Source: Candidatus Aminicenantes bacterium (lineage in GTDB: Bacteria > Acidobacteriota > Aminicenantia > Aminicenantales > JAFGAV01). From it: a stretch of 64,000 bases of DNA. Positions 35,137 to 63,128 of this stretch are shown piece after piece. Under the pieces are notes generated by a model. The model worked only from the letters and a program-made list of their open reading frames with translations. It did not search any database and had not been told where the DNA came from. A program made the position numbers and the translations under genes. The first letter of the stretch is position 1; every line of letters begins with the position of its first letter. Location of the stretch: assembly GCA_963705895.1 (NCBI GenBank), contig OY970122.1, forward strand, positions 1,634,774-1,698,773. Reading direction: 5' to 3'.

Positions 35137-35168
35137 GAACGCGGTGGTGGGCCTGGCCAGACTCGAAC
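35137..35168 (-). repeat. Partial 3' copy of tRNA-Arg(CCU) (T-arm plus acceptor, 32 nt, with CCA)
   Basis: gggcctggccagactcgaactggcgacctcc is identical to the 3' end of the tRNA at 63054-63128. Confidence 0.7.
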
Positions 35169-35337
35169 TGGCGACCTCCAGCTAAAACGAGATTAGTGAC
35201 TGTTCCTGTCCCAGAGCCGGAGCCGGATTTGATGACCGACCTCGAATGAGTGGCGCTCGCGGGCTAAGATCAGGCTCCATACCCAGAGGGCGATTCGTGC
35301 CTCATTTGGGGATATTTAAGAATTTTCTTTCGTCCTG

Positions 35338-36492
35338 TTATTTCAAGTTGTAGGAGAAGATAGCGCCTAAGTCTGAAGCACCTCCAAAAATCGTCATTCC
35401 ATACAATGTAGAGCCTTTTATTATTAGTGAACCCAATGGATAGGCTCCATCCGATGGATAGCCGGCAAACCAGTGAAGCAGCGCGAATCCCGTGCCGTTC
35501 GTATTGGTTTTGAATATCGTGCCATAACCGCTGGTGCCGCCCTGATACGTCATTCCGTACAACGTGGAGCCTTTGAGTATCAGTGAAGCCCATGGAAACG
35601 CTCCATCTATTGTGCCGCCGGCAAACGAATGAAGCAGCGCGAACCCGGTGCCTTTCGTATTGATCTTGAATATCGTGCCATCATCACTGGTGCCGCCATA
35701 AGCAGTCATTCCGTACAACGTGGAGCCTTTTAATATCACAGAGACATCTGGATAGGCTCCATCCGATGGATAGCCGGCAAATGAGTGAAGCAGCGCGAAC
35801 CCCGAGCCGTTCGTATTAATCTTGAATATCGTGCCTGCATCACTAGTGCCGCCGTTATGAGTCAATCCGTACAGCGTGGAGCCTTTTAATATCAGCGACC
35901 CATTTGGCGCCAGCCCATCCGATGGATAGCCGGCAAATGAGTGAAGCAGCGCGAACCCCGTGCCGTTCGTATTAATCTTGAATATCGTGCCTGCATCACT
36001 AGTGCCGCCGTTATGAGTCAATCCATACAACGTGGAGCCTTTGACTATCAGCGACCCACGTGGATATCCCCCATCCGATGGGCCGCCGGCAAACGAGTGA
36101 AGCAGCTCGAATTCCGTCCCGTTCGTATTGATTTTAAATATCGTGCCTTCGCCGTAAGCGCCGCCCTCATTCGTCATTCCATATAGCGTGGAGCCTTTGA
36201 GTATCAGTGAACCCCATGGATACGCTCCATCCGTTGTGCCGCCGGCAAAGAAGTGAAGGACAGCGAATCCCGTGCCGTTCGTATTAATCTTGAATATCGT
36301 GCCGTTGTTGCTGGCGCCGCCGAATTCGGTCATTCCATACAACTTGGAGCCTTTTAAGGTCAGTGAGCCTATTGGATCTTCTCCATCCGTTGTGTCGCCG
36401 GCAAACGAGTGAAGCAAGTTGAATTGTGCTTGAAGAGATGTAGCCAGGAAAAACATGAAAAGAAATACCCAACCAAATCGCTTTTTCGACAT
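35338..36492 (-). CDS. Secreted tandem-repeat protein, 7 x ~52-aa repeats (Gloeo_Verruco/'GloVer'-like beta-propeller), paralog A
   Basis: Signal peptide MSKKRFGWVFLFMFFLATSLQAQ, then 7 repeats of LLHSFAGGxSDGxxPxGSLILKGSTLYGMTxxGGTSDxGTIFKINTNGTGF. Confidence 0.8.
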   Translation of the reverse strand: MSKKRFGWVFLFMFFLATSLQAQFNLLHSFAGDTTDGEDPIGSLTLKGSKLYGMTEFGGASNNGTIFKINTNGTGFAVLHFFAGGTTDGAYPWGSLILKGSTLYGMTNEGGAYGEGTIFKINTNGTEFELLHSFAGGPSDGGYPRGSLIVKGSTLYGLTHNGGTSDAGTIFKINTNGTGFALLHSFAGYPSDGLAPNGSLILKGSTLYGLTHNGGTSDAGTIFKINTNGSGFALLHSFAGYPSDGAYPDVSVILKGSTLYGMTAYGGTSDDGTIFKINTKGTGFALLHSFAGGTIDGAFPWASLILKGSTLYGMTYQGGTSGYGTIFKTNTNGTGFALLHWFAGYPSDGAYPLGSLIIKGSTLYGMTIFGGASDLGAIFSYNLK

Positions 36493-36744
36493 TTTTTGTC
36501 CCTCCCTTATGCCCGAACCAGAGGATTTGCTGACCTATTGAAAATAATAATATAGCGGACCGCAAAATAATGTCAAGGCCGGTGGGATTGCAGATTTCAG
36601 AATTTGCAGACGTTTCCCGAACTCAAAATCAGCATGCGAATTCGCAACTTGTTTGTGAACCCGCGAACTCCATCTGCGGACTTCAGCCCCTAAAGTGAAT
36701 CCGTCACAATATGATCTTCTTATGGAATCCTATTGCGGAGGCCT

Positions 36745-37902
36745 TTATTTCAGGCTGTAGGCGAAGATAGCGCCTAAGTCTGAAGCACCTCCATGGATCG
36801 TCATTCCGTACAATGTGGAGCCCTTGAGAATCAGTGACTCATATGGATATTCCCCATCCGATGGGCCGCCGGTAAAGGAGTGAAGCAGCGCGTATCCCGT
36901 GCTGTTCGTATTGATCTTGAATATCGTGCCTAAGTCGCTGCTGCCGCCCCCAAAAGTTATTCCGTAAAACACGGAGCCCTTGAGAATCAGTGACCCCCTT
37001 GGCCCTTCCCCATCCAATGGGCCGCCAGCAAACGAATAAAGCAGCACGAACCCGCTGGCGTTCGTTTTTATCTTGAATAGCGTACCACCGCCGTAGGCGC
37101 CGCTTGAGTAAGTCATTCCGTACAACGCGGAGCCTTTTAATATCAGTGATCCATATGGGATTGCTCCATCCGTAACGCCGCCGGCAAACGAATGAAGCAA
37201 CACGAACCCGCTGCCGTTCGTATTGATCTTGAATATCGTGCCCCAGTTGCTGGTGCCGCCCCCAGAAGTCATTCCGTACAACACAGAGCCCTTGAGAATC
37301 AGTGACTCAAAATATGGATATTTCCCATCTGATGCGCCGCCGGCAAACGAATGAAGCACCGCGAACCCGCTGCCGTTCGTATTGATCTTGAATATCGTAC
37401 CGTTACCAAGAGTGCCGCCGAATTCGGTCATTCCATACAGCGCGGAGCCTTTTAATATCAGTGAGCCTTCTGGACTTGCTCCATCCGACGCGCCGCCGGC
37501 AAACGAATGAAGCAACACGAACCCGCTGCCGTTCGTATTGACCTTGAATATCGTACCACCGCCGTAGGCGCCGCCTGAGTAAGTCATTCCGTACAATGTG
37601 GAGCCCTTGAGAATAAGTGACCCATATGGCTCGCTCCCATCCGATGCGCCCCCGGCAAACGAATGAAGCAGCACGAACCCGGTGCCGTTCGTATTGACCT
37701 TGAATATCGTACCACCGCCGTAGGTGCCGCCATGATATGTCATTCCGTACATTGTGGAGCCCTTAAGAATCAGTGACCCGAACGGATATTGCCCATCCGC
37801 TGTGGCGCCGGCAAACGAGTGAAGCAAGTTGATTTGTGCCTGAAGAGATGCAGCCAGGAAAAACAGGAAAAGAAATACCCAGCCAAATTGCTTTTTCAAC
37901 AT
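36745..37902 (-). CDS. Secreted 7-repeat GloVer-like protein, paralog B
   Basis: Same architecture (MLKKQFGWVFLFLFFLAASLQAQ plus 7 repeats). Confidence 0.8.
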   Translation of the reverse strand: MLKKQFGWVFLFLFFLAASLQAQINLLHSFAGATADGQYPFGSLILKGSTMYGMTYHGGTYGGGTIFKVNTNGTGFVLLHSFAGGASDGSEPYGSLILKGSTLYGMTYSGGAYGGGTIFKVNTNGSGFVLLHSFAGGASDGASPEGSLILKGSALYGMTEFGGTLGNGTIFKINTNGSGFAVLHSFAGGASDGKYPYFESLILKGSVLYGMTSGGGTSNWGTIFKINTNGSGFVLLHSFAGGVTDGAIPYGSLILKGSALYGMTYSSGAYGGGTLFKIKTNASGFVLLYSFAGGPLDGEGPRGSLILKGSVFYGITFGGGSSDLGTIFKINTNSTGYALLHSFTGGPSDGEYPYESLILKGSTLYGMTIHGGASDLGAIFAYSLK

Positions 37903-38272
37903 TTTTTGTCCCTCCCTTATGCCCGAATTATGGGCTTTGCCATTAGTAATACAGCCGACCGCAAAACAATGTCAAGGCCGGGGGAAGGCCCGGGACGTGC
38001 CAGGTTCAGACTCCTCCCTCAGTTGAGCGGGCCGGGTTACCCTTGAAAAGTTGGCTTCATTTAAGAGGACCTTAGGCCTCCTGACCTTTTCTCATGGAAG
38101 GCGCCACGATAAGAGAATTGAATTTCCTACCATTCCGATAGACCGCTCAAAAAACGCTTTCCGCTTTCTTTCGGCTTTCATGCTGAAAACGACCTAAAAC
38201 GGCTTAATGCCATTTTGGAGGGGAAAGTCTCCAAGCTATTGATATCAGAAGGAATTAAAGGGAAAAGCGGAT

Positions 38273-38315
38273 TGGGCCTGGCCAGACTCGAACTGGCGAC
38301 CTCCGGATTAGGAAT
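38273..38315 (-). repeat. Partial 3' copy of tRNA-Arg(CCU) (from anticodon loop to 3' end, 43 nt)
   Basis: tgggcctggccagactcgaactggcgacctccggattaggaat is identical to the 3' portion of tRNA-Arg(CCU). Confidence 0.75.
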
Positions 38316-38535
38316 GCACTGCATCAATTCCCTGAAAATACGCTAACTATTTATTTATCATTGAGTTATTCTATTGGACCGTAAGCCTATTTTGGTTCAG
38401 GTGTCAACTTTTTGTCGTGTTGGATCCGGGATTTCTTGCGTTTTTCATTGGAAGCCAAACAGCCAAGAAACTCACATTATGCCTGGACCATTATTTAGGG
38501 ATGAAGTCCTGCTTGGGGCAAACGGTGGTGTCTGT

Positions 38536-40236
38536 TCAGACAATGGCCGGCTTTTGTTCTTTGAGGAGAGGGTTCATGGCATTGGCCAGAACAACAAGAA
38601 TGACACAGCCGATGACGTTAAACCATAAGTAGGGAATTTTCGTGAAAAAATAGCAGGTCAGCACAGCTAGTTCGGCAATGATCGCGGCGATAAATGTTGC
38701 GTTTCCGCCGATCTTCTTAAAATAAAACGCGATGAGAAATATCCCGAGAATCGTCCCGTAGAATAGGGACCCCATGATGTTCACGGCTTCGATCAATGAG
38801 CCGAGGTGGTTCGCGAATTGGGCGAAACCGATGGCGTACAGCCCCCAAAAAATCGTGGCGGCTTTTGACACATGAACATAGTGCCGGTCCGGCGCGTTTC
38901 GCCGGACAAGGCGCTTGTAAATATCGATGACGGTGACGGAGGCCAGGGCATTGAGCTCGGCGGAGGACGCCGACATCGACGCCGAGAGAATCGCGGCCAG
39001 GATCAATCCGACCAGCCCGACTGGCAGATAGCGGGTCACGAAACTCAGGAAGATATAATTCGTGTCGTTCGTCTCAGCCAGGGGATTGTTCTTCTTGATC
39101 AGGCCGATGGCCTCCTGCCGGATACCGGCTTCCGATGCCTTGGTGAGCCGGAGCTTTTCCATGGTGTCGGCCACGTCCTGGTCATTGCGGTTTTCGATGG
39201 CCCCCAGCATCTGCCTCAGTTGGCCCTGCTTCTCCCCGTTCAGCCGCTGGTAGTCCGTCTCGAGTTTGGTGTACGCTCCCGCATAGGCGCCGTTCTTGAC
39301 GTGGGACGTTTCGATCGGGTTGAAGAACAGCGGCGGCGTCACGAACTGATAAAAGACGAAGATCATGGCGCCGATGAAAAGGATGATGAACTGCATGGGG
39401 ACCTTGAACACGCCGTTGGCCAGGAGTCCCAGCCGGCTTTGGGCGACGGACCGCCCTGAAATGTAGCGCTGGACCTGCGACTGGTCCGTCCCGAAGTAGG
39501 ACAGGGCCAGGAAGCCCCCTCCGATGAGGCCCGACCAAAAATTGTAACGGTCGGTCCAGTTGAACGCGAAATTGACGACATTGAGCTTGCCCAGTTTTCC
39601 GGCTAGATGGACGGCGCTCGAAAAGGAAATGTCGGGCGGCAGCCGGCGGAAGATCATGACAAACGCGGCGCCCATTCCCACGGTCACGATGGCCATCTGC
39701 AGGAGATGCGTTTTGCTGACGGCCTCCGTGCCGCCAGAGGCCGTGTAGAGGATAACTAGGCCGCCGATTATGAAAATCGTCAGGCGGAAATCCCAGCCGA
39801 GGATGACGGAGATGATCAGGGCCGGGGCCAAAATCGTGAACCCGGCGGCCAGCCCTCGTTGGATGAGGAAGAGGAGGCTCCCCAGGGCCCGGTTCTTCAG
39901 GTCGAACCGCTGTTCCAGAAGCTCGTAAGCCGTGTAGACCTTGAGTTTATGGAACAAGGGAACGGCCGTGATCGAGAGGATGACCATGGCGATGGGCAAG
40001 CCGAAGTAGAACTGGACAAACCGCATGCCGTCGACGTAGGCCTGGCCGGGCATGGAGAGGAAGGTGATGCCGCTGGCCTGAGTGGCCATGATTGAGATCG
40101 CGACGCCGTACCAGGGGGTCGATTTATTGGCCAGGAAATAGCCGTGCATGTCCTTTTTGCCCCGGGTCTTCCAAACGCCGTAGACGGCCACGAACAGGAG
40201 GAACGAACTCAGGACGACCCAGTCCAGGGGATGCAT
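38536..40236 (-). CDS. Sodium:solute symporter (SSS family)
   Basis: Thirteen-plus hydrophobic segments with SSS-family N-terminal motifs (GYFLANKSTPWYGVAISIMATQASGITFLSMPGQAY). Confidence 0.85.
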   Translation of the reverse strand: MHPLDWVVLSSFLLFVAVYGVWKTRGKKDMHGYFLANKSTPWYGVAISIMATQASGITFLSMPGQAYVDGMRFVQFYFGLPIAMVILSITAVPLFHKLKVYTAYELLEQRFDLKNRALGSLLFLIQRGLAAGFTILAPALIISVILGWDFRLTIFIIGGLVILYTASGGTEAVSKTHLLQMAIVTVGMGAAFVMIFRRLPPDISFSSAVHLAGKLGKLNVVNFAFNWTDRYNFWSGLIGGGFLALSYFGTDQSQVQRYISGRSVAQSRLGLLANGVFKVPMQFIILFIGAMIFVFYQFVTPPLFFNPIETSHVKNGAYAGAYTKLETDYQRLNGEKQGQLRQMLGAIENRNDQDVADTMEKLRLTKASEAGIRQEAIGLIKKNNPLAETNDTNYIFLSFVTRYLPVGLVGLILAAILSASMSASSAELNALASVTVIDIYKRLVRRNAPDRHYVHVSKAATIFWGLYAIGFAQFANHLGSLIEAVNIMGSLFYGTILGIFLIAFYFKKIGGNATFIAAIIAELAVLTCYFFTKIPYLWFNVIGCVILVVLANAMNPLLKEQKPAIV

Positions 40237-40239
40237 GGG

Positions 40240-41361
40240 CTATGATTTCAGGATTTCTTCATAAAAGGATTCATACAGCGGAATGATCTGGTCGGCGTCG
40301 AAGAATTCCTCGGCGCGTTTCCGGGCCTGCGCCCTAAAAAGGGCGTGCCGGGCCGGGTCGCCGAGCAGGGCCACGGCGCTGGCCGCCATGTCCGCGACGT
40401 CGCCGACGGGAAACAGATACCCCGTCTCCCCGTGCGTGATGACCTCGGGCAGGCCGCCGATCGCGGTGGCGATCACCGGGACGCCGCAGTTCATGGCCTC
40501 GAGGGCAGTCAGTCCGAAGCTCTCCTGCTCGCTCGGCAGGAGAAACAGGTCGGCGCAGAGAAAGAGCGGCTCGAGCTGGTCCTGTTCTCCCATGAACTGG
40601 ACGTCGGCGTTGAGCTTCAGTTCACGGACGAGCTGCTGGATGAACAGCCGCTCCGGCCCGTCGCCGATCAGAATGAGCTTGGCCGGGAGGCGTTCGCGGA
40701 CCTGGGCGAAAATGCGCACGACATCGGCGATCCGTTTCACCGGGCGGAAATTGGAGGCGTGCATCAGGATCTTCTCGCCCCGCGGCGCCAGCGCCTCCCT
40801 CGAGCACAGGTCGTGATTCTGCGTGGGCCGAGCGATTTCGACAAAGTTGGGGATGACCCGGATCTCGCGCCGGATGTCGAATTCCTCGACGGTGCGTTGC
40901 ATGAGGTAGCGGGAGACGGCCGTCACGCCGTCGGACTGCTCGATGGCGAACTTGACGACCCGTTGGAAGGACGGGTCGGCGCCGACCAGGGTGATATCCG
41001 TGCCGTGAAGGGTCGTGATCGTTTTCAGACGCTCGGAATTGAGGATCTGCTTGGCCAGGTAGGCGCTCGCGGCGTGGGGCACAGCGTAATGGGCATGGAT
41101 GATGTCCAGGCCGCGGGTCTCCGCGAGCTCGACGAGTTTGGTGACCAGGCTCAACTCGTACGGCGGGTACTTAAACAGCGGATACGTGGAAACCTCGATC
41201 TCGTGGATGAAAATGTTCTGGTAAAACGTGCGCAGGCGAAACGGGGGGGCATAACTGATGATATGGAGCTCGTGACCCTTTTTCGCGAGACCGATGGCCA
41301 ATTCCGAGGCCACGACCCCACTGCCGCCGTGGGTCGGATAGCAGACGATGCCGATTTTCAT
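40240..41361 (-). CDS. bshA: GT4 glycosyltransferase, N-acetyl-alpha-D-glucosaminyl L-malate synthase (BshA)-like
   Basis: The N-terminus MKIGIVCYPTHGGSGVVASELAIGLAKKGHELHIIS closely matches the BshA start. GT4 EX7E region. GAGG RBS before MKIGI. Confidence 0.7.
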   Translation of the reverse strand: MKIGIVCYPTHGGSGVVASELAIGLAKKGHELHIISYAPPFRLRTFYQNIFIHEIEVSTYPLFKYPPYELSLVTKLVELAETRGLDIIHAHYAVPHAASAYLAKQILNSERLKTITTLHGTDITLVGADPSFQRVVKFAIEQSDGVTAVSRYLMQRTVEEFDIRREIRVIPNFVEIARPTQNHDLCSREALAPRGEKILMHASNFRPVKRIADVVRIFAQVRERLPAKLILIGDGPERLFIQQLVRELKLNADVQFMGEQDQLEPLFLCADLFLLPSEQESFGLTALEAMNCGVPVIATAIGGLPEVITHGETGYLFPVGDVADMAASAVALLGDPARHALFRAQARKRAEEFFDADQIIPLYESFYEEILKS

Positions 41362-41369
41362 GCCGGACC

Positions 41370-42107
41370 TCATGGGATTGTCCACAGGTATTCGGGCCCG
41401 AAAAATCCGACGGGGTCCTCCACCCGGATGGCCTCCCGAACCAGGAAGGGCTCGCCGAACTTCGCGCCGATATGGGCGCCGTAGTGCCTGGCCCGGGTCT
41501 CGACGGTGTCGAGAAATTCGGGCCGGCCGATGAGCGTTTCCTCTCCCCCGGATTCGCCCCGGCCCGGGCGGTGGAATTGGGATTCATAGGCCCTGACCGC
41601 CTTCATTTTTTGTTCGTGCGCGTTGGAGATGTCCACGATAAAGGAGGGCGTGAACTCGAACCGGGTCTGGTAATAAATGACCTTGCGGGGCCGGAAGGGA
41701 GGCTCGCCCGTCTCGAGCTTCTTCAGCCCGGCCAGGTAGGCCGCCTGGCGCACGAGATGGGATGTTTGCTCATGGTCCGGGTGACGGTCGACCCAGTAAG
41801 GCGCAAAAACGATTTTCGGCCTGAGGGCGCGCAGGACACCGATGATCTTGAGCTTGTTCTCCCAGGTCCCCTCGACCCGCCCGTCGGGGATGTCCAGCAT
41901 CTCGTGGGCCGTCAAACCCAGGACCTTCGAGGCGTTCGTGAATTCCCGGGCCCGAATCGCGGCGCTGCCCCGAGTCGCCATCTCCCCCTGGGTCAGCACG
42001 ACGACCCCTGTTTTATAGCCCAACCCCGCCAGTTTGACCAACGTGCCGCCGCAGCCGAGCTCGACGTCGTCGGCGTGAGCCCCAAACGCTAAGGCATCCA
42101 AGTCCAT
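41370..42107 (-). CDS. bshB1: LmbE/PIG-L family deacetylase (BshB1-like)
   Basis: LAFGAHADDVELGCGGTL signature of the LmbE deacetylase family. Positioned between bshC and bshA. Confidence 0.65.
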   Translation of the reverse strand: MDLDALAFGAHADDVELGCGGTLVKLAGLGYKTGVVVLTQGEMATRGSAAIRAREFTNASKVLGLTAHEMLDIPDGRVEGTWENKLKIIGVLRALRPKIVFAPYWVDRHPDHEQTSHLVRQAAYLAGLKKLETGEPPFRPRKVIYYQTRFEFTPSFIVDISNAHEQKMKAVRAYESQFHRPGRGESGGEETLIGRPEFLDTVETRARHYGAHIGAKFGEPFLVREAIRVEDPVGFFGPEYLWTIP

Positions 42108-42134
42108 GGCAGTCTCCTTGTCGTGCAATATCCC

Positions 42135-43751
42135 TCACAGGACCAGATACTGATGATCGACGACATCGATCGCGATGGCCTGGTCGAGCTGATCGATGAA
42201 AGCGGCGCCGTACTTTATCAAATACGGCACGATATTGAAAACCCTTTCCTGGAGGTGCCGGTTCGGGAAGAGGTTGTCGACGGCCTTGTGGAGCTGCTGG
42301 ACCGCGATGTCGTTCCGCTTCGTGGCCGCCTGCCCCACTTTTTTTTCCAGAAAGTTCAACTGCAGGTTCATCTTCCCCTTGGCCAGGTCGACGGATTCTG
42401 CGAGCCCGGGATCGAAGGTCAGGATTTCCGACTTCAGGGCGGCGTAGTCCCTCTCGAGTTGATCGCGGACACGGGATAGGGCCCGGCCTACGGAGTCGGG
42501 GATGTCTTCCTTGGTGATGTTCCCGATCGCCCCGCCCGCGTTGCGCCAGAGGTCCGGGACGCTCAGATGATATTTCTTCAGGATGTGGTCGACCTTCCTT
42601 TCGACGATGGTCAGGCTCTTGCGCGGATAGATCACGGGCATCGGCAGTCCGAACGCTTCGTAGACGCCTTTCAGCTGGGCAAAATACGCGATTTCGGAAG
42701 GACCGCCGACATAGGCGACAGTGGGCAAAACGGCATCCTGATAGAGCGGGCGCAGAAGAACATTTGGACTGAACAGGAAGGGCTTTTCTTTGGCCAGCCT
42801 GAGAAGGTCCTCTTTCGTGGCCAAGGACGGAAGGCCTTTGATGTCGAAGGCACCATCTTTCCATTGGATGGCGTGGCGTTCCCGCTCCACGTAGAACTGG
42901 TTGAGGATTCCCGCGTGGAGGGGAATCTGCGCCTCGTATCCGGTCTGGCGCAGCCGCTCCGACGCGGCCAAGGCCTGCCGGGTCGATGGGGAATCTTCGG
43001 CAATCTCGCGATAGAAGACGTCGCGCCCCATCTCTTTCAGGCGAGGATGGCCGGCGTCGATCAGGATCAACCCGCGAGACCTGAACAGCCGCGTCATCCA
43101 GCGGCCGAACGCTTCGACATAGGAGCGGCCGGGCGCGTAGGCCTCGCTCAGGGAGCCCATGATGTCCGCTTTGAATTCCGTGTCCAGGGTCATGCCTTTG
43201 AGTTGCTCGAGGCAATCGGCGACGTCCGGGGGCAACGCGATATTCGAGACGGGGACCTTCGATTCGCGCGGCGGCGACGGACACTGGATTTCCCGGAGCT
43301 GATTGTCCTTGTCCATGAGGGCGATGTGATCGATCTCGGCCAGGTCGTGATCGTCCGAAGCCAGCCAGAATACCGGCACGAAACTTCCGAAACCGCGACG
43401 GTTGAGCACGTCCGCAAGTTTGGTCGCAGTCAGCGCTTTATAGATTGTGTAGAGCGGGCCGGAAAAAAGCCCGGTCTGCTGCCCGGTGACCACGGCGCAG
43501 GCCTCTTCCCGGACGATTCTTTCGATCGCGCCCAGAGTCTCGGGCCCGCAGCCGTAACTTCTATTTTGTTCGGTCAGGACCTCGGCCAGATCTTCCCGGG
43601 CGATTTGGCGCGACCGGACTCTTTCGGCTTGGCGCTCATAGGCGCCGGGGTCCCGAAAGTCGCCGTTATAGAACTCGCGCACCTTGCCGTGGTCATAGAC
43701 ATAGTCATCAGCCAGAGGCGGCAGAGGCGGATGCCGGATCGTCTCCGTCAT
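42135..43751 (-). CDS. bshC: Bacillithiol biosynthesis cysteine-adding enzyme BshC-like
   Basis: 538-aa protein of the BshC/YllA family, judged from length and N-terminal pattern (AREDLAEVLTEQNRSYGCG). Cotranscribed with the bshB1/bshA-like genes. Confidence 0.65.
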   Translation of the reverse strand: MTETIRHPPLPPLADDYVYDHGKVREFYNGDFRDPGAYERQAERVRSRQIAREDLAEVLTEQNRSYGCGPETLGAIERIVREEACAVVTGQQTGLFSGPLYTIYKALTATKLADVLNRRGFGSFVPVFWLASDDHDLAEIDHIALMDKDNQLREIQCPSPPRESKVPVSNIALPPDVADCLEQLKGMTLDTEFKADIMGSLSEAYAPGRSYVEAFGRWMTRLFRSRGLILIDAGHPRLKEMGRDVFYREIAEDSPSTRQALAASERLRQTGYEAQIPLHAGILNQFYVERERHAIQWKDGAFDIKGLPSLATKEDLLRLAKEKPFLFSPNVLLRPLYQDAVLPTVAYVGGPSEIAYFAQLKGVYEAFGLPMPVIYPRKSLTIVERKVDHILKKYHLSVPDLWRNAGGAIGNITKEDIPDSVGRALSRVRDQLERDYAALKSEILTFDPGLAESVDLAKGKMNLQLNFLEKKVGQAATKRNDIAVQQLHKAVDNLFPNRHLQERVFNIVPYLIKYGAAFIDQLDQAIAIDVVDHQYLVL

Positions 43752-43868
43752 TTGCTAAAAACCTTGGTGAAAATGTAGAAGAGCAGGATCTGGAACGCCA
43801 GATTCAGCAGGACAGCGGCGTACAAGCCGCGCCATGACGAGAACAAGGGAGGCCGCCCCCGCTCGTCC

Positions 43869-47105: not shown

Positions 47106-49580
<2,475 letters not shown>

Positions 49581-52256: not shown

Positions 52257-52311
52257 TTTTAATCAATAGGGCGATCAAGCTTATAATTTAAGCAAAGGGG
52301 AGGGAAAATCA

Positions 52312-54672: not shown

Positions 54673-54745
54673 TATGCGGCCCAACATATTATTTTTATCA
54701 ATAGGGCGATAAAGCTTATTATTTAGGCCTTAAGGAGGGGAATCG

Positions 54746-55891
54746 ATGTCGAAAAAGCGATTTGGCTGGGTTTTTCTTTTCCTGTTTTTCCTGGTTACAT
54801 CTCTTCAGGCACAAATCAACCTACTTCACTCGTTTGCCGGCGGCGCTACGGATGGAGCCTACCCAGCAGGCTCACTGATATTAAAGGGCTCCACGTTATA
54901 CGGAATGACATCTAATGGCGGCACCAGCAACTTTGGCATGATATTCAAGATCAACACGAACGGCACCGGGTTCGCACTGCTTCACTCGTTTGCCGGCGGC
55001 GCTACGGATGGAGACTACCCAGAAGGCTCACTGATATTAAAAGGCTCCACATTGTATGGAATGACCGTAGGAGGCGGTCCCTATGACTACGGTACGATAT
55101 TCAAGATCAATACGAACGGCACCGGGTTCGTGCTGCTTCACTCGTTTGCCGGCGGCGCTACGGATGGAGAGTACCCAAAAGGCTCACTGATATTAAAAGG
55201 CTCCGTGTTGTACGGAATGACGAATGGCGGCGGCAGCAGCGATGTAGGCACGTTATTCAAGATCAATAGGAACGGCAGCGAGTTTGTGCTGCTTCATTCG
55301 TTTGCCGGCGCAGCAGACGGAGCAAGTCCATGTGATTCACTGATATTAAAAGGCTCCGCGTTGTACGGAATGACTGAAATCGGTGGCACCAGCAACTGGG
55401 GCACGATATTCAAGATCAATACGAACGGCAGCGGGTTCGCGCTGCTTCACACGTTTACCGGGACCGCATCCGATGGGCAAATGCCATATGGGTCGCTAAT
55501 TCTCAAAGGCTCTGCGATGTACGGAATCACCCAATACGGCGGCGCCTCTGGGGATGGCGCGATATTCAAGATCAATACAAACGGCACGGGGTTCGTGCTG
55601 CTTCACTCCTTTATCGGCACGGATGGACTGTATCCATTTGGATCACCGATTATCAAAGGCTCCACGTTGTACGGGATGGCATGGAACGGCGGCGCCAGCA
55701 GCTTTGGCACGATATTCAAGATGAACAAAGACGGCACGGGATTCGTGCTGCTTCACTCATTTGCCGGGGCCACATCGGATGGAGCGTATCCCCATGGATC
55801 ACTGATACTCAAGGGTTCCACGTTGTACGGAATGACGAATGTGGGAGGGGCTTCAAATAAAGGCGCTATCCTCTCCTACAACCTGAAATAA
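54746..55891 (+). CDS. Secreted 7-repeat GloVer-like protein, paralog D
   Basis: Same signal peptide and repeat architecture. Confidence 0.8.
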   Translation: MSKKRFGWVFLFLFFLVTSLQAQINLLHSFAGGATDGAYPAGSLILKGSTLYGMTSNGGTSNFGMIFKINTNGTGFALLHSFAGGATDGDYPEGSLILKGSTLYGMTVGGGPYDYGTIFKINTNGTGFVLLHSFAGGATDGEYPKGSLILKGSVLYGMTNGGGSSDVGTLFKINRNGSEFVLLHSFAGAADGASPCDSLILKGSALYGMTEIGGTSNWGTIFKINTNGSGFALLHTFTGTASDGQMPYGSLILKGSAMYGITQYGGASGDGAIFKINTNGTGFVLLHSFIGTDGLYPFGSPIIKGSTLYGMAWNGGASSFGTIFKMNKDGTGFVLLHSFAGATSDGAYPHGSLILKGSTLYGMTNVGGASNKGAILSYNLK

Positions 55892-56134
55892 AGGCGCACG
55901 AAATAGCATTCCATAGAAAATCATATTGTGGCAAATTCGCCCTTGGGGCTATAGTCCGCAGAGGTAGTTAATAGACAGAACGAACTTGCAGACCGAATTC
56001 AAGTCCGGGATGCGTTTGCAAATTCAGCATTCTGCAATTTCCCCACCAGCCTTGACATTATTTTTCGGGCCGACATATTATTTCAATCAATAGGGCGATA
56101 AAGCTTATTATTTAAGCATTAAGGAGGGGAATAG

Positions 56135-57292
56135 ATGTTAAAAAAGCAATTTGGGTGGGTTTTTCTTTTCTTGTTTTCCCTGGCCGTATCTCTTCAAGCA
56201 CAAATGATTGTTCTTCACTCGTTCGCTGGCGCCACAGCGGATGGGGGATATCCAAGTGGATCACTGATTTCAAGCGGCTCCACGTTGTACGGAATGACGG
56301 ATTGGGGCGGCGCCGACAGTGATGGCACGATATTCAAGATCAATAAGGACGGCACGGGATACGCTGTGCTTCATTCGTTTGCCGGCGGCGCATCGGATGG
56401 GAGAGCTCCATATTTGGCGTCACTGATTCTCAAAGGCTCCACATTATACGGAACGACACTTAATGGCGGCACTGGGGATGGCGGCACGATATTCAAGATC
56501 AATAGGAACGGCACGGGATTCGCGGTGCTTCACTCTTTTGTCGGCGGAGCATCGGATGGGGTTCTTCCCATTGGGTCACTGATTATAAAAGGCTCCGCGT
56601 TGTACGGAATGACTCAATACGGCGGCACCGCCAATATGGGCACGATATTCAAGATCAATAAGGACGGCAGCGGGTTCGTGCTGCTTCACTCTTTTGCCGG
56701 AGGTGCCTCGGATGGGGATTACCCATATGGGTCGCTGATTCTCAAAGGCTCCGCGTTTTACGGAATGACTCAATACGGCGGCACCAGCAACTGGGGTACG
56801 ATATTCAAGATCAATACAAACGGCACAGGATTCGCCCTGCTTCACTGGTTTGCCGGCGGCGCATCGGATGGAAGATACCCACAGGGGTCTCTAATAGCCA
56901 AAGGCATGACGTTGTACGGGATGACGAATGGGGGCGGCACCAGCGATATCGGCACGATATTCAAAATCAATAAGGATGGCACAGGATTCGCCCTGCTTCA
57001 CTCGTTTGCCGGCCCCACATTGGATGGGCAATGGCCAGCTGGAGCACTGGTAGTAAAAGGCGCCACGCTGTACGGATTGACTCAAAACGGCGGCAGCACT
57101 GGATTAGGTGTGCTATTCAAGATCAACACGAACGGCACAGGATTCGCCCTGCTTCACTCGTTTGCCGGCCCCACATTGGATGGGTCATGGCCAGATGGGG
57201 CGCTGATTTTGAAAGGCTTCATGTCATACGGGCTGACGTATCGGGGAGGTGCTTCAGACATGGGCACTATCTTCTCTTTCAGCCTGAAATAA
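56135..57292 (+). CDS. Secreted 7-repeat GloVer-like protein, paralog E
   Basis: MLKKQFGWVFLFLFSLAVSLQAQ plus 7 repeats. Confidence 0.8.
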   Translation: MLKKQFGWVFLFLFSLAVSLQAQMIVLHSFAGATADGGYPSGSLISSGSTLYGMTDWGGADSDGTIFKINKDGTGYAVLHSFAGGASDGRAPYLASLILKGSTLYGTTLNGGTGDGGTIFKINRNGTGFAVLHSFVGGASDGVLPIGSLIIKGSALYGMTQYGGTANMGTIFKINKDGSGFVLLHSFAGGASDGDYPYGSLILKGSAFYGMTQYGGTSNWGTIFKINTNGTGFALLHWFAGGASDGRYPQGSLIAKGMTLYGMTNGGGTSDIGTIFKINKDGTGFALLHSFAGPTLDGQWPAGALVVKGATLYGLTQNGGSTGLGVLFKINTNGTGFALLHSFAGPTLDGSWPDGALILKGFMSYGLTYRGGASDMGTIFSFSLK

Positions 57293-57418
57293 AGGCGCAC
57301 GAAATAGCATTCCATTAGAAAATCATATTGTGACAAATTCGCCCCTTGGGCTATAGTCCGCAGAGGCAGTTCGCAGACAGAACGAACTTGCAGACCGAAT
57401 TCGAGTTTGGCAAGTATC

Positions 57419-57436
57419 CGCAAATTCTGAAGTTTG
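57419..57436 (+). promoter_or_regulatory. Palindromic operator-like site GCAAATTCTGAAGTTTGC upstream of the cassette promoter (variants at ~53600 and ~56020, and on the minus strand at ~36570)
   Basis: Imperfect 18-nt inverted repeat ~25 nt upstream of the -35. The 53600 copy carries the perfect palindrome TCAGAATTCTGA. Confidence 0.35.
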
Positions 57437-57535
57437 CAATCTCCCCCGGCCTTGACATTATTTTGCGGCCCGGCATATTATTTTAATCAATAGGGCGATC
57501 AAGCTAATAATTTAAGCAAAGGGGAGGGAAAATCA

Positions 57536-58693
57536 ATGTCGAAAAAGCGATTTGGGTGGGTATTTCTTTTCCTGTTTTTTCTGGCCGTATCTCTTCAGGC
57601 ACAAATCAACTTGCTTCACTCGTTTGCCGGCGGAGCATCGGATGGGGAATGGCCATGCGGGTCGCCGATATTAAAAGGCTACACGTTGTACGGAATGACG
57701 TCTGGGGGCGGCACCAGCGACCTAGGCACGATATTCAAGATCAATAGGGACGGCTCGGGATTCGCGCTGCTTCATTCGTTTGCCGGCGGCGCATCGGATG
57801 GAGCAGGTCCAAGTAGATCACTGATATTAAAAGGCTCCACATTGTACGGGATGACGTATGGGGGCGGCGGCAGCGATCTTGGAACGATATTCAAGATCAA
57901 TAGGGACGGCACGGGATTCGCGCTGCTTCATTCTTTTGGCGGTGGCGCATTGGATGGAGAATATCCCTGGGGGTCCCTGATATTAAAAGGCTCCGCGTTG
58001 TACGGAATGACGAATTATGGCAATTCCAGTGATGGCGGCACGATATTCAAGATCAATACAAACGGCGCGGGATACATGTTGCTACATTCGTTTGCCGGTG
58101 CGCCAACGGATGGGATGCATCCCCGGGGGTCACTGATTCTCAAAAGCACCTCGTTGTACGGAATGACTGTGGGCGGCGGCTCCAGCCTTGGTGGCACGAT
58201 ATTCAAGATCAATACGAACGGGACAGGATTCGCGCTGCTTCATTCGTTTTCCGGCGGCGCGTCGGATGGGGAAGGTCCGTGGGATTCTCTGATAGTAAAA
58301 GGCTCCACGCTATACGGAATGGTATATTGGGGCGGCACTAGCGATAAAGGTACGATATTCAAGATCAATGCGAACGGCACGGGGTTCACGCTGCTTCATT
58401 CATTTTCCGGCGACGCAACAGATGGAGCGTATCCAAATGGCTCACTGATATTAAAAAGCTCCACGTCCTACGGAATGACGTATGGGGGCGGCGCCAGCAA
58501 CTATGGCACGATATTCAAGGTCAACACGAACGGCACGGGATTCGAGCTGCTTCACTCGTTTCAAGGCGGTGCTACGGATGGGGCATATCCATATTTTGGG
58601 TCACTGATAGCCAAAGGCTCCACGTTGTACGGGATGACGAATGGTGGAGGGGCTTCAGACTTAGGCGTTATCTTCTCCTTCAACTTGAAATAA
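57536..58693 (+). CDS. Secreted 7-repeat GloVer-like protein, paralog F
   Basis: Same architecture. Confidence 0.8.
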   Translation: MSKKRFGWVFLFLFFLAVSLQAQINLLHSFAGGASDGEWPCGSPILKGYTLYGMTSGGGTSDLGTIFKINRDGSGFALLHSFAGGASDGAGPSRSLILKGSTLYGMTYGGGGSDLGTIFKINRDGTGFALLHSFGGGALDGEYPWGSLILKGSALYGMTNYGNSSDGGTIFKINTNGAGYMLLHSFAGAPTDGMHPRGSLILKSTSLYGMTVGGGSSLGGTIFKINTNGTGFALLHSFSGGASDGEGPWDSLIVKGSTLYGMVYWGGTSDKGTIFKINANGTGFTLLHSFSGDATDGAYPNGSLILKSSTSYGMTYGGGASNYGTIFKVNTNGTGFELLHSFQGGATDGAYPYFGSLIAKGSTLYGMTNGGGASDLGVIFSFNLK

Positions 58694-59045
58694 AGGCCAT
58701 CGAAATAGGATTCCATAAGAGAATCATATCGTGACGGATTCGCCCCCGGAGTTGTAGTTCGTAACTAGAGCTCGTCCCCTTTTTTAGGGCGATCAAAATT
58801 CTGTGCCCGCTTGATAGATAGAATAGGGCCGTCCCGCCTCACCTGGCGGTCTCCCCCAGGCCTCAAATGATGAGCAGAACGGAACGGCCCCAGATAGGCC
58901 CCGGCCCGTCTCATTTCCCGCCATTTTCGCTATTTACCAGCCTTTTTACAGGCTTGCCCCGCGGACTAGCTATCCGCCGGCCAGCGGAAAATTGCCCCCG
59001 GTCTTTAACTCTTCCTGGTTTTTCTCATAATATCTGGACCGATTT
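58694..59045 (+). repeat. Tail-repeat copy Y (~350 nt, full)
   Basis: Aligns along its length with 60412-60775. Ends ...ctggaccgatttgaagtagggg. Confidence 0.65.
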
Positions 59046-59253
59046 GAAGTAGGGGCAATCACTTGTCAAGGACAGCTCGGGGGCGATTTGATAGAGGCCC
59101 GGCTAAACTTCCGCCCGTTTTGTTGTCTATAGATGGCAAATGATTATCCCGCCCGTCGAGCAAAGCCTGAAGCGCTTGACATCGTCTTCTTTTTGGCATA
59201 TTAATTCAGCCAAAGAGCGGCAAAACTCAACCAAAACAAAGGAGAAAAACGAA

Positions 59254-60411
59254 ATGTCGAAAAAGCGATTTGGGTGGATATTTCTTTTCATGTTTTTCCT
59301 GGCTGCATCTCTTCAAGCACAAATCAACTTGCTTCACTCGTTTGCCGGCGGCGCTACGGATGGGAAGTACCCATATGCGGCGCCAGTATTAAAAGGTTCC
59401 ATGCTGTATGGAGTGACAATTAATGGCGGCACCAGCGACCTAGGCACGATATTTGCGATTAATACGAACGGCACGGGATTCGTTGTGCTTCACTCATTCG
59501 CCGGCGGGGCATCAGATGGCGCAGATCCGTTGGGCTCGTTGATATTAAAAGGCTCCACGTTGTATGGGATGACTTCGGGGGGCGGCACCTACAGCTATGG
59601 CACGATATTCAAGGTCAATACGAACGGCACGGGATTCGCGCTGCTTCACACGTTTACCGGCGGCGCATCGGATGGAGCAGGTCCATATGGCTCGCTGATA
59701 TTAAAAGGCTCCGCGTTGTACGGGATGACTTATATCGGCGGCAGCGCTGCATATGGCACGATATTTAAGATCAATACGAACGGTACGGGATTCGCGCTGC
59801 TTCACACGTTTATCGGCGGCGCATCGGATGGGAAATACCCATTTTTTGCGTCATTGATTCTCAAAGGCTCCGTGTTGTACGGAATGACGCAAAAGGGCGG
59901 CAGCAGTGATGATGGCACGATATTTAAGATCAATACGAACGGCACGGGATTCGCGCTGCTTCACACGTTTATCGGCGGCGCATCGGATGGGAAATACCCG
60001 TACGGGTCACTGAGAGCCAAAGGCTCTGCCTTGTACGGAATGACATTCGGGGGCGGCACCAGCGACTCAGGTACGATATTCAAGGTCAACACGAGCGGGA
60101 CGTTATTCGCGCTGCTCCACTCGTTCGCCGGCGGTGCATCGGATGGGAAATCTCCAATTGGGTCACTGGTCCTTAAAGGCTCCAAAATATACGGAATGAC
60201 CGAAAAAGGCGGCAATAGCGACCTAGGCACGATATTCACGATCACGACGGTCGGCACGGGATTCGAGCTCATTCATTCGTTTGCCGGTGGCGCATCGGAT
60301 GGAGCGGTTCCAAATGGCTCGCTGATATTAAAAGGCTCCGCGTTGTTCGGAACGGCGAATGGGGGAGGGGCTTCAAACTACGGCGTGATATTCTCCCTCA
60401 GCTTGAAATAA
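59254..60411 (+). CDS. Secreted 7-repeat GloVer-like protein, paralog G
   Basis: Start at ATG 59254 (MSKKRFGWIFLF), with an AAGGAG RBS. The upstream in-frame extension in the ORF track is rejected. Confidence 0.8.
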   Translation: MSKKRFGWIFLFMFFLAASLQAQINLLHSFAGGATDGKYPYAAPVLKGSMLYGVTINGGTSDLGTIFAINTNGTGFVVLHSFAGGASDGADPLGSLILKGSTLYGMTSGGGTYSYGTIFKVNTNGTGFALLHTFTGGASDGAGPYGSLILKGSALYGMTYIGGSAAYGTIFKINTNGTGFALLHTFIGGASDGKYPFFASLILKGSVLYGMTQKGGSSDDGTIFKINTNGTGFALLHTFIGGASDGKYPYGSLRAKGSALYGMTFGGGTSDSGTIFKVNTSGTLFALLHSFAGGASDGKSPIGSLVLKGSKIYGMTEKGGNSDLGTIFTITTVGTGFELIHSFAGGASDGAVPNGSLILKGSALFGTANGGGASNYGVIFSLSLK

Positions 60412-60775
60412 AGGCCTGCAAAATAGGATTCCATAAGAGAATTATATCGTGACGAACTCGCCCCGGGGTTGTAGTTCTTAACTAGAGTTCTTCCCCTTTT
60501 TTAGGGCGGTCAAAATTCTGTGCAAGCTTGATAGAATAGGGCCGCCCCACCTCTCCGGGTCGGTCTGGGCCCAGAGCTCAAATTGAGCAGGACGGAGCGG
60601 CCCTAAATAGGCTCCGGCCCGTCTCAATTCCCGCCACTATCGGCCCGCGCCGAGTTTTTTACAGGCATGGCCTTTGGACTCCTCATCCGCCGGCCGGCGG
60701 AAAATAGCCCCGGCCTCTAACTCTCCTAGGTTTTTCCCGATTAGACCTGGACCGATTTAAGGGGGGCTGGTCACG
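60412..60775 (+). repeat. Tail-repeat copy Z (~365 nt, full)
   Basis: Contains the GC palindrome CCGCCGGCCGGCGG. Ends ...ctggaccgatttaagggggg. Confidence 0.65.
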
Positions 60776-61153
60776 CGTCCTCCAGGCCACTTGGAAAGAG
60801 CTAGACGAGCGGCGGCCACCAGTTGAGGGAAAGGACGTGGAGGAAAAACCGAACGGGTTCCGCGAAATGGAATTCCCTGGCCAGCCTCACGGCCTCAGCG
60901 GCGCGTGAGGCCTGGTCGTACGAGATCAGGTCGGCTTCCAGATGGGCAATAAAGCCTGACCGAGGCGCACCGCCACAATCACGGACAGGACGAATGCGGC
61001 CGCATACAACCATCGTCGGAGGGGATTGGGGTCGGGCCGGGTTATTTGTTTTTTTATCAACGGCTAAGTCCGTCCTCCCGTTCTTGCGCTCCGGCCGAAG
61101 GACTGAGCCGACGCATCCCATTGATAAAGAAAACCTGGTTCGACCCCAGACTT

Positions 61154-62560
61154 TCACCCGAGCTTCTTGAGCGTTATCCGATAGGTCAGCCACTTGCCGA
61201 GTCCGCCCGTCCTTACCGCGCCGTCCCTCAACGGGAGCGACTCTCCGCTGACCTGTGTGGTGAATTCCTTGCTGCCCAGCTCCTTTCGATAAACGGCCTT
61301 ACCCGCGGACGACTTGTTGGGTATGCCGAGAATGCAAGCCCGCGCTGGGAGGAAAGGCCATTTGATGTTGATGTTCTCGCCCTGAACGCTTCCCTCTGTG
61401 GGAAGGCCTACGAACTTCTGGGCCTGCTCGTAGGTCAGCTGGCCTCCGCAAGCCACAAAGTCATAGTGAAAAGGATCGCCAGGGCTGAAGATGAGCTTCG
61501 GGGACTGGTCGAATCGGGTGATATCGGCTTCCACCAAGGTCCGGACCCCCTTGCGTTTCCGGGTCGTGATCTTTGCCCCGAGCGACCAGCTGAATTCGAC
61601 CGCGAGCGGGCCGGGCTTGACCGAAGTCCCGACGTCCAGCGGACCCAGGATGCTGCTGGTTTCGTCCTTTTCCTTGCCCTCGACGCTCATCTGCCATTCC
61701 TCTTCCTCTTCCTCGCTGAAATCGACCTCGACCGCGACCGTGCCCCGGAGGGCGTAGAACTCGGACAGGGAGCTGGGGCTCATGGGCCAATCCACCCGCT
61801 CCTCGAAATCGTACTGCTTGCGCCAGACTTCCTGCTTGTCATAGACAGGTTTGAGCTCCTCCCAGGAGGGCGGCTCAACGGGTTTTTCCAGATGATAGTT
61901 GTGATGGTCCATTATCCACGCGGGCCCCCCGAAGGAGTAAGGCTTCGGGACCGCGCCCCGGGCGAGGCCGATGGCTGGTCCGCTCAGCTCGGTCTTCCGT
62001 TCGAGCCCGTCCCGGCGCCATTTGAGAGAAAAGAAGCCGGCCTTGTCGGTCCGGGTGAGGATATCGGCCCCGCCGCTGAACTCGAACATCTTGAACTCCT
62101 GGCTCGAGAACCCCTTCGGCCTCCAGCCGAGGACGGAAGCCTGGAGGCTCGTCGGGTCGACCTGGGCCATGCCCGGACAGCATGGCGCCGGACCGAGGAT
62201 GAGGTAATCGTCCAGCTGGCTGCGTTTCTGCTGGTTATAGTTGAGCTGGATGTAACCCCGGAACGAAACCCGGATCTTGGCCCTGAGACGGTCATCGCCG
62301 AGGTCGCTATGATGATGGAAGGTTTCGTCGATGTCCCAGTCCATGTTGATCCTGAGGGGTTTGCACTTCAGATAATCGGCCGTGACGCCGTAGCTGGCCT
62401 TGATCTGGGCCTTGAACTGCGTGTTCGGCCAGCACGGGTCCCCCGACTTGATCCATGCCTTTTCGCGCTCGTCCTGGGCCGGGCCCCGAAAAGGCAGGAC
62501 GGCCAGGAACACGATCGTCGAGAACGCCCCTAAAAGCGCGATCCTGAGTGCTTTGGTCAT
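61154..62560 (-). CDS. Secreted hypothetical protein (468 aa)
   Basis: Signal peptide MTKALRIALLGAFSTIVFLAVLPF. Balanced composition. The antisense 495-aa ORF is a GC artefact. Confidence 0.6.
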   Translation of the reverse strand: MTKALRIALLGAFSTIVFLAVLPFRGPAQDEREKAWIKSGDPCWPNTQFKAQIKASYGVTADYLKCKPLRINMDWDIDETFHHHSDLGDDRLRAKIRVSFRGYIQLNYNQQKRSQLDDYLILGPAPCCPGMAQVDPTSLQASVLGWRPKGFSSQEFKMFEFSGGADILTRTDKAGFFSLKWRRDGLERKTELSGPAIGLARGAVPKPYSFGGPAWIMDHHNYHLEKPVEPPSWEELKPVYDKQEVWRKQYDFEERVDWPMSPSSLSEFYALRGTVAVEVDFSEEEEEEWQMSVEGKEKDETSSILGPLDVGTSVKPGPLAVEFSWSLGAKITTRKRKGVRTLVEADITRFDQSPKLIFSPGDPFHYDFVACGGQLTYEQAQKFVGLPTEGSVQGENINIKWPFLPARACILGIPNKSSAGKAVYRKELGSKEFTTQVSGESLPLRDGAVRTGGLGKWLTYRITLKKLG

Positions 62561-63053
62561 GATAGCCCCCCTTCCGTCTTAGACTGACCCACTTATAGCA
62601 CAACTCCGAACGCGCTCAAAGAGCGAAGGCCTGATTTCTGGAATCGGGCCTGTCGGGAGAATGCTCGTTCTGACCTGCCCCCCCAAAAATCGGTCCAGGT
62701 ATAATGTTAGGAAAGTACCTGGAAGAAGGGAGTCGATATGGGCTGACCTGCCCTTTTTTATTGTACCAACTGTGAAGTTAGTATTCTAGTCTCCTGACCT
62801 TCTGGGGCGGGCATTTGGGAACCACACCCTCTCCTAATTTCTAAATAGCCAGGCTTTGCAAATTTTTTTCGCACATTTTGCGGAGATTGGGAACTTAAAA
62901 CAGAGCACCTCAGCCACTCTTGTTCCCATACCCCCCTGCCCCTTTTGCTTCCGCCATATTTGTGCCAAAACAAGATAGAAAATTGCGGACTTCTGTGGAA
63001 TAGGATTGAATCTAGCTTTTGCCTATCTGAAGGCAATATAAGGGAATCTTAAA

Positions 63054-63128
63054 TGGGCCTGGCCAGACTCGAACTGGCGACCTCCGGATTAGGAATCCAT
63101 TGCTCTATCCGTACTGAGCTACAGGCCC
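63054..63128 (-). tRNA. tRNA-Arg (anticodon CCU)
   Basis: The reverse complement is GGGCCTGTAGCTCAGTACGGATAGAGCAATGGATTCCTAATCCGGAGGTCGCCAGTTCGAGTCTGGCCAGGCCCA. Canonical anticodon loop TTCCTAA (U33, A37). CCA is not encoded. One A.G mismatch at the top of the anticodon stem. Confidence 0.8.

Follow-up and report, generated by a model that had tools for sequence, protein, structure and literature searches.

The 64,000-nucleotide stretch analyzed here (the window) comes from the closed 3.31-Mb chromosome (3,311,678 bp) of an uncultivated Aminicenantes bacterium, and between its positions 35 and 63 kb lies an array of gene blocks bounded by an intact tRNA-Arg(CCU) gene and displaced copies of the 3' part of that gene. 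Segmentation of this array by Pfam and NCBIfam matches and by composition (GC content at third codon positions, GC3) gives the following order outward from the tRNA: a tRNA-proximal arm, a 13-kb insertion made up of a gene termed D and a low-GC island I2, a block of genes termed C, an integrase stub, the scar f1, the islet I1, the scar f2 and the backbone that begins with a ligase gene. The GC3 values are 0.80 for gene D, 0.52–0.61 for I2, 0.73–0.84 for block C and 0.55–0.61 for I1, as against 0.74–0.86 for the backbone measured on the far side in the ligase, flavodoxin and PALP genes. The enclosed 28 kb is thus a mosaic of at least four units and not one element. The repeat-protein arrays, insertion sequence (IS481), BshA, BshB, BshC, SSS transporter and Ser/Thr kinase that the initial annotation had read in this interval were all recovered; the single integrase stub that it had described turned out to be at least five stub remnants.

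The tRNA-Arg gene, the integration target on the regenerated attL side, lies on the minus strand at 63054–63128 (Rfam RF00005, 64 bits; the bounds of tRNA-Arg(CCT) by ARAGORN and Rfam being 63053/4–63128/9), and its sequence is identical in the relatives L015, L016, L020 and L021. A 32-nt segment from its 3' part, TGGGCCTGGCCAGACTCGAACTGGCGACCTCC, is present in the window in three exact and co-oriented copies, at 35148–35179, 38273–38304 and, in the tRNA gene itself, 63054–63085. None is expected by chance, the mean count in 100 dinucleotide-preserving shuffles being 0.00 and the maximum 0, so that the fragments withstand the objection of chance similarity which the initial annotation had raised to its own reading. 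Scar f1 (38273–38315, minus strand) is an exact 43-nt copy of tRNA positions 31–76, exact up to 38315, which is tRNA position 31 next to the anticodon loop, and matching at 48/50 nt when extended to 38322. Scar f2 (35148–35179, minus strand), the outermost attR, is an exact 32-nt copy comprising the T arm, the 3' strand of the acceptor and part of the variable region. Both the tRNA and the 43-nt copy stand where the initial annotation had placed them, and its second 32-nt copy is likewise real and exact, with the qualification that the coordinates it gave (35137–35168) are 11 nt too low. With the tRNA gene on the minus strand, anything that integrates at its 3' end lies at lower coordinates, and f1 and f2 are placed as would be expected of displaced 3' ends. 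They can be taken with confidence to be genuine integration scars.

About 490 bp of noncoding DNA adjoin the tRNA gene, and these include the tRNA-proximal element arm or P' arm (62707–63053, minus strand), which shares homology with the sequence that lies downstream of tRNA-Arg in L015, at a local score of 105, the best of 500 shuffles reaching 26. The P' arm also bears a weak similarity to the DNA following f1, at a score that was reached by 1 of 500 shuffles. On the other side of the tRNA, the 5' flank holds the gene of an NtrC-type regulator, which is cut off by the end of the window and, being conserved in none of the relatives, is unusable for synteny. Across L015, L016, L020 and L021 the only conserved part is the stretch of ~50 nt upstream of the tRNA that constitutes its promoter region (63130–63175); the genes beyond it differ in each contig, i.e., the 5' flank is not syntenic. 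The far side of the array is stable: the first backbone gene there, on the 3' side of the array, codes for a PaaK-like acyl-CoA ligase (33645–35066, minus strand; NCBIfam; 446 aa in the public record), and the order of ligase, flavodoxin, PALP, TPR and tRNA-Ala is kept in L027 and L028. Between this ligase and block C lies the islet I1 (35180–38272, minus strand; 3.1 kb), which is closed by f2 and consists of a P'-like arm and two GloVer-repeat genes (36745–37902 and 35338–36492; TIGR03803).

Block C (38536–49580, minus strand; Pfam; its length given as 11.3 kb) is host-like in composition and codes for an SSS transporter (38536–40236), BshA (40240–41385; PF00534/PF13439), BshB (41370–42128; PF02585), BshC (42135–43751; PF10079 at 1.4e-103 and PF24850), an 839-aa PIG-L-domain protein (43869–46388), a DUF2911 protein (46435–47100) and a Ser/Thr kinase-TPR protein (47106–49580), all on the minus strand. 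The co-encoded GT4 glycosyltransferase, PIG-L deacetylase and BshC with its Rossmann-like and coiled-coil domains form the expected complement for bacillithiol biosynthesis, which is accordingly the predicted function of the three bsh genes. The SSS transporter is 100% identical to a protein encoded on the 3,311,678-bp contig. The relatives of this BshC at 78–89% identity are all from Candidatus Aminicenantes metagenome-assembled genomes, and the gene order from DUF2911 to the SSS transporter is invariant in all related loci that span it. The position of the kinase varies, and it is found upstream of the block solely in scar-bearing loci. A circular permutation of the block, with the kinase now upstream and now downstream, was considered as a sign of a circular intermediate and rejected because the downstream kinase is a paralog: the downstream copy in scar-free loci shows 53–57% identity and the upstream copy 69–73%.

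What joins block C to the scar f1 can be read by reference to another locus of the window, namely tRNA-Ala(GGC) (29297–29372, minus strand), which has 3' copies at 20833–20876 and from 10602 (a 32-nt exact match at 10602–10633). Here, an apparently intact 8.4-kb integrative element (20877–29296) contains a full 362-aa tyrosine integrase (20893–21981; PF00589, 1.5e-30) with its stop codon 17 nt before the 43-nt tRNA-Ala copy, along with an int-alpA RNA motif (29075–29141), an AAA_25 protein and a weak TerL-like ATPase match below the Pfam cutoff. This layout provides the order of the family: tRNA, P' arm, cargo, integrase and core. A second int-alpA RNA motif (19295–19359; 48 bits) is found inside the outer tRNA-Ala interval, between an 8-repeat ankyrin gene (19389–20600) and two Ser/Thr-kinase paralogs (14363–16312 and 16423–18936). 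The C-terminus of the tRNA-Ala integrase is 51% identical over 33 aa to the stub of the tRNA-Arg array. In that array, the region 38316–38520 (minus strand), which is fused to block C at its SSS end and leads into f1, has a motif and the segment ...CAAAAAGTTGACAC in common with the stub at 49686–49953. Judged by this sequence likeness, the DNA from the SSS stop codon to f1 is a decayed integrase 3' end with its tail, belonging to the family of that stub. As f1 comes after an integrase 3' stub and before a P'-like arm, it can be seen as the attR core of a unit with its integrase just downstream of the SSS transporter that doubles as the attL of islet I1. Block C thereby occupies the interval between tRNA-Arg and f1, with an integrase stub exactly at the integrase position of the family, as would befit cargo.

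The remnants of integrases in the array (38399–38520, 49686–49958, 52070–52146, 58907–59060 and 60620–60774) number at least five, and every integrase between 35 and 63 kb is dead. One of these (49645–49958, minus strand) is a C-terminal stub of 90 codons with the catalytic-Tyr box (49686–49958; PF00589 E=6e-7, covering profile positions 142–170 of 172) together with an anticodon-arm-like hairpin (49645–49661). It forms the junction with the kinase promoter, and the same pair of stub and hairpin lies upstream of the kinase in L006. A tRNA-Tyr/tRNA-Val-like reading of 49645–49690 was unsupported by Rfam at E<5, and the feature retains its description as a hairpin. In L021, the position that the stub and hairpin take in the window (49649) is where a tRNA 5' half (3570–3609; GCGCCCGTGGCTCAGATGGATAGAGCGATGCACTCTTAA, ending in an anticodon loop) adjoins the kinase promoter. 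The tRNA-side limit of the 13-kb insertion is in turn marked by an inverted integrase "HDL-box" motif (TGACCTGCCCCCCCAAAAATCGGTCCAGGTATAAT; 62672–62706, plus strand), which L020 and L021 have as well, likewise oriented, in the interval from tRNA-Arg to the kinase gene. One and the same nucleotide is the start of no fewer than seven integrase stubs (window 49953, 59060, 60774, 62672 and 38520; L013:1953; L021:3616): this start is TGACCTG, which in the intact integrase (at 21133) codes for the box II residues H-D-L, and the DNA preceding it is unrelated each time. Either recombination has broken repeatedly at this point, or a single truncated stub has been propagated. A reading of the motif as a sigma-70 promoter was rejected by eye on account of the wrong spacing of the -35/-10 hexamers.

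The low-GC island I2 (49962–60800, plus strand; Pfam; for GC3 see above) contains a PMT_2 glycosyltransferase gene (50022–52049, plus strand; Pfam), five GloVer-repeat genes on the plus strand (52312–53484, 54746–55891, 56135–57292, 57536–58693 and 59140–60411), an IS481 transposase gene (53714–54646, plus strand; Pfam) and the integrase-stub remnants at 52070–52146, 58907–59060 and 60620–60774, recognized as stub repeats. Four GloVer genes were scanned (two each in I2 and I1), with TIGR03803 E-values of 1e-77 to 1e-84; the remaining three of I2 were unscanned and assigned through the common 156-nt repeats and their translation. In all, there are seven paralogous secreted GloVer-repeat genes (35338–37902; 52312–60411), each with seven 52-aa (156-nt) repeats, a number that makes seven-bladed propellers the probable fold of their products. 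The genes lie in two oppositely oriented arrays, beside the PMT_2 glycosyltransferase, which suggests a variable and possibly glycosylated family of surface proteins.

On the tRNA side of I2 lies gene D (61154–62560, minus strand), which is core-like in its codon usage and whose 468-aa product is secreted and has no known function. Its homologs with 66–67% identity are found in a conserved MurJ-C39-PPDK-D-PAP2 context without a tRNA, and in the 94.6%-identical relative L013 the flanks differ again. In L013, gene D lies between a tRNA-Ala-like T-arm fragment (285–319) and an integrase motif (1953–2023). From these contexts, gene D has moved into the array and looks like a shuttled cassette. In L020 and L021, I2 and D are absent, and the kinase end of block C lies ~290 bp from the identical tRNA-Arg. 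The PIG-L, DUF2911 and kinase genes of L021 show 78–89% nucleotide identity to window 46153–49649, the homology ceasing at 49649 and restarting at the motif 62672–62706 and at tRNA-Arg; L020 has the same junction with tRNA-Arg. As both lack 49650–62671, the stub, I2 and D were inserted between block C and the tRNA-proximal arm, and these 13 kb are a later, lineage-specific insertion. The presence of the bsh genes at this tRNA without the repeats in relatives, which the initial annotation had named as potential counterevidence, is seen in part: it holds for the repeat-protein arrays in L020 and L021, on contigs that end inside the block.

A metagenome scan with the 43-nt scar sequence yielded eight contigs, and the ends of block C were compared across 19 related loci. 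Block-end scars, in the form of integrase stubs or of tRNA-Arg, tRNA-Thr or other tRNA scars, are present in 10/19. In L030, the last 412 nt of the SSS gene, the stub and f1 are 98.8% identical to the window (98.6% over all 220 nt of the stub region). What follows the scar in L030 is an islet of its own, then an integrase stub, another Arg scar, a pair of genes and a third, degenerate Arg scar ~130 nt upstream of the ligase, i.e., in the place equivalent to f2, followed by a ligase-to-flavodoxin backbone with only 76–80% identity to the window and the break at the att core. Such a jump from 99% to 78% identity at the att core is the pattern that a site-specific insertion of foreign DNA produces. 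A k-mer chimera is unlikely in view of the three private substitutions in the f1-equivalent scar of L030. Similarly, L022 is 97% identical to the window across 8.7 kb of block C and diverges at 38399, inside the stub, beyond which neither its integrase tail nor its tRNA 3' fragment is that of the window. A misassembly of the window is unlikely, given its closed 3.31-Mb source and the fact that L030 independently repeats the SSS-stub-f1 succession and L021 the adjacency of kinase and tRNA.

Outside the genus, block C is found with a different tRNA, tRNA-Thr(CGT), whose scars, 39–45 nt long, lie ~110–170 bp downstream of the SSS gene in L003, L004 and L006. Those of L003 and L006 follow a conserved ~90-nt arm; in L004, the scar is shorter and weaker (a 23-nt match) and the arm visible by eye only. 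In L002 and L005, a tRNA-Thr scar is instead upstream of the kinase. L005 also has the intact tRNA-Thr(CGT) there, and a 2-kb islet separates this tRNA from its exact 45-nt copy, which stands 90 bp from the kinase on the upstream side. This islet (L005:1918–4077) has only an HI0933-like flavoprotein and a 170-aa protein and no integrase, and adds another instance of a tRNA and scar that enclose genes of ordinary appearance. L014, L017, L018 and L019 have exact 46–52-nt Arg scars without a tRNA, beside GloVer, PAP2, IS481 and integrase remnants, and three of these four have one inner arm in common. Overall, the Arg scars of the relatives are 43–52 nt long, exact or near-exact, and lie beside GloVer, IS481 and integrase genes; secreted GloVer-protein arrays appear to be the usual cargo of elements that target tRNA-Arg, pointing to cell-surface variation as the thing traded by these elements. 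L016, in which tRNA-Arg is followed by a gene for an outer membrane protein (OMP)-like product and a ligase-like gene, was considered as proof of an ancestral empty site and set aside as suggestive only, the ligase being 50% identical.

In the integration of such elements, the attP of the element recombines with a segment of the tRNA gene, the tRNA is regenerated from the element DNA, and the old 3' end is pushed outward as a scar. On this principle, the locus can be seen as a decayed tandem, or accretion, array of tyrosine-integrase elements that would have targeted tRNA-Arg(CCU) from the anticodon loop to the 3' end. Block C would occupy the cargo position in the f1-closed unit, with the order tRNA, cargo, integrase and core, having arrived or been exchanged within a unit that had lost its integrase by decay and was mobilizable only in trans, in the manner of a cis-mobilizable element (CIME). 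I2 and D would have been added later on the tRNA side of the block C unit; f2 would close I1, and the ligase beyond it would be the ancestral flank. This reading as a whole, with the f1-closed unit exchanged between lineages, is given a probability of roughly 0.55. The more general proposal of serial site-specific integration at tRNA-Arg(CCU), made in the initial annotation, finds support in the exact, co-oriented scars starting at the anticodon loop, in the context of f1 and in the scars of the relatives. As for block C, we infer that it is neither the cargo of a single 28-kb element nor simple backbone.

Several observations weigh against such an accretion history. Block C is found in every sampled relative with host-like composition, in the manner of a vertically inherited housekeeping operon, and 9/19 loci are scar-free, including one lineage seen in many samples with constant neighbors. 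An intact integrase adjoins the SSS gene in none of the loci, and islet I1 is devoid of any integrase remnant, with no stub match. There is no Arg core between I2 and block C, which means that the 13 kb did not enter via standard tRNA integration; together with the want of an integrase remnant in I1, this absence and the entry route of the 13 kb are not accounted for by the standard process. The sequences inside f1 and inside f2, i.e., the inner arms of the two scars, are unrelated, and a supposed likeness between the DNA just inside each was rejected as no similarity was found. The comparisons with relatives are also bounded: the contigs of L020 and L021 end inside block C and do not reach its SSS end, and L030 covers only 412 nt of the SSS gene, so that its near-identity could be a short recombination tract.

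The main rival explanation, possible and, on balance, doubtful, is that block C is plain backbone that was never mobile, with f1, f2 and I1 parted from the tRNA by rearrangement. This could have happened if a second tRNA-Arg copy once lay downstream of the SSS gene and its 5' half was lost, or by inversions or translocations among the many stubs and GloVer arrays of this very plastic region. The composition and gene order of block C are indeed host-like and conserved, and many lineages keep it in stable, scar-free contexts across samples. Rearrangement is further suggested by L026, where block C adjoins the ligase in inverted form, by L025, where the two ends of the block are marked by a degenerate Arg-like fragment and stub pieces, the stub copies being inverted, and by the GloVer arrays around block C in the window, which are inverted repeats of 71–81% identity. 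However, a never-mobile block needs independent events that put an integrase 3' end and a tRNA core, correctly oriented, downstream of the SSS gene for Arg, Thr and another tRNA, and the contrast of 98.8% versus 76–80% identity across the att core of L030 is left unexplained. A single inversion would also flip the orientation of the scar, whereas all three copies are direct; one between the inverted GloVer arrays was therefore rejected as the cause of the position of block C, since f1 would be inverted.

The two explanations offered in the initial annotation fare less well. An island that is ancient, domesticated and ameliorated over its whole 28 kb, with fragments of old date, is improbable: it would suit the reduction of all integrases in the interval to stubs and the host-like GC3 of C and D, but f1 (43/43) and f2 (32/32) are undecayed when the older scars of L030 have 1–5 substitutions, and I1 and I2 remain 20–25 GC3 points below the backbone, i.e., are not ameliorated. 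Moreover, the 13-kb part is missing from L020 and L021, the junctions differ in L022 and L030 despite 97–99% identity within the block, and the full 28-kb arrangement with both scars was not seen conserved across the species of the clade. A single integrated element of very large size (28 kb) as the carrier of the housekeeping genes has in its favor that everything lies between the tRNA and its outermost fragment. This is the least credible of the explanations and already contradicted by the internal scar f1, the alternation of GC3 along the interval, the at least five integrase stubs in two orientations, the lack of the 13 kb in L020 and L021, and the separate occurrence of the sub-units in relatives; nor did Pfam find conjugation, replication or phage genes in the interval.

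Within the accretion reading, a stronger proposal can be made tentatively, namely that the bsh block is an integrase-less mobile cassette that passes between Aminicenantes species and switches its target among tRNA-Arg, tRNA-Thr and other tRNAs. Such a switch might come about by the swap of a short module of integrase 3' tail plus att core, with recurrent breakpoints at the H-D-L codons of the integrase box II (TGACCTG) and at position 38399. Genomic islands that carry bshABC did not turn up in a search of the literature. Were the bsh block to travel in a CIME-like fashion, a core redox-buffer pathway would count among the mobile genes of these bacteria of sediment and peat, and a "housekeeping" composition would be no ground for excluding DNA from islands. 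The locus also indicates, in a closed genome of an uncultivated phylum, how the mapping of tRNA fragments can mislead, as the interval from the tRNA to its outermost fragment is here a layered composite that includes backbone-like genes.

Among known systems, several classes can be set apart from the tRNA-Arg array. A scan of 30 open reading frames between 28 and 64 kb gave no Pfam or NCBIfam matches to a relaxase, coupling protein, type IV secretion or oriT, as would mark integrative and conjugative (ICE) or integrative and mobilizable (IME) elements. Prophage capsid, tail, terminase and lysis genes are likewise absent from 35–63 kb, the weak TerL-like match being confined to the tRNA-Ala element. 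An integron or cassette array, which would have an intI gene with attI and an attC hairpin at the end of each cassette, was considered for the layout of a stub with plus-strand genes and rejected, as the stub scores 15.7 against the 265-bit integron-integrase cut-off and the intergenic repeats are integrase remnants, not attC sites. In elements with attP inside int (the SSV1 and Mx8 types), the att core lies within the integrase frame and integration splits or alters int; the array is not of this type, as the core of the intact family member starts 17 nt past the stop codon. That member, the tRNA-Ala(GGC) element, parallels the array in its succession of tRNA, cargo, integrase and 43-nt core and in its related integrase C-terminus, and differs in its full-length integrase, AAA_25 protein, weak TerL-like match, int-alpA motif and tRNA target.

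A closer parallel might be struck with the tandem islands recognized by the Islander principle, by which an intact tRNA gene (tDNA) and a displaced 3' fragment define an island and each member of a tandem array needs its own integrase (PMC4383910). The intact tDNA, the several co-oriented displaced 3' fragments on one replicon and the crossover centered on the anticodon loop (class "A") are as in these islands. Unlike in them, a tyrosine integrase is not present in each interval from tDNA to fragment: those of 35–63 kb are all C-terminal stubs, and I1 has none. The foreign composition relative to the backbone expected of islands is present in I1 and I2 and absent in C and D, which are backbone-like. 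It is the CIMEs and the accretion-mobilization of ICESt1/ICESt3-type elements in Streptococcus thermophilus (Pavlovic 2004; Bellanger 2011; as summarized in PMC5704250) that offer the closest described process: recombination genes are lost with attL and attR kept, and new elements enter a resident att site to give composite arrays movable as a unit. I1, with f1 and a P'-like arm on one side, f2 on the other and no recombinase, conforms to this description, and so, in terms of sequence, does the tRNA-to-f1 unit with both cores and only integrase stubs, which would be mobilizable. The array differs from the streptococcal CIMEs in its location at a tRNA, its Acidobacteriota-related uncultivated host, the bacillithiol operon as candidate cargo and the lack of visible ICE/IME machinery in the window. 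The structure is real and of a known kind, occurring in a phylum without an earlier description of it, with the bacillithiol operon as probable cargo, apparently retargeted between tRNAs, being its unusual aspect.

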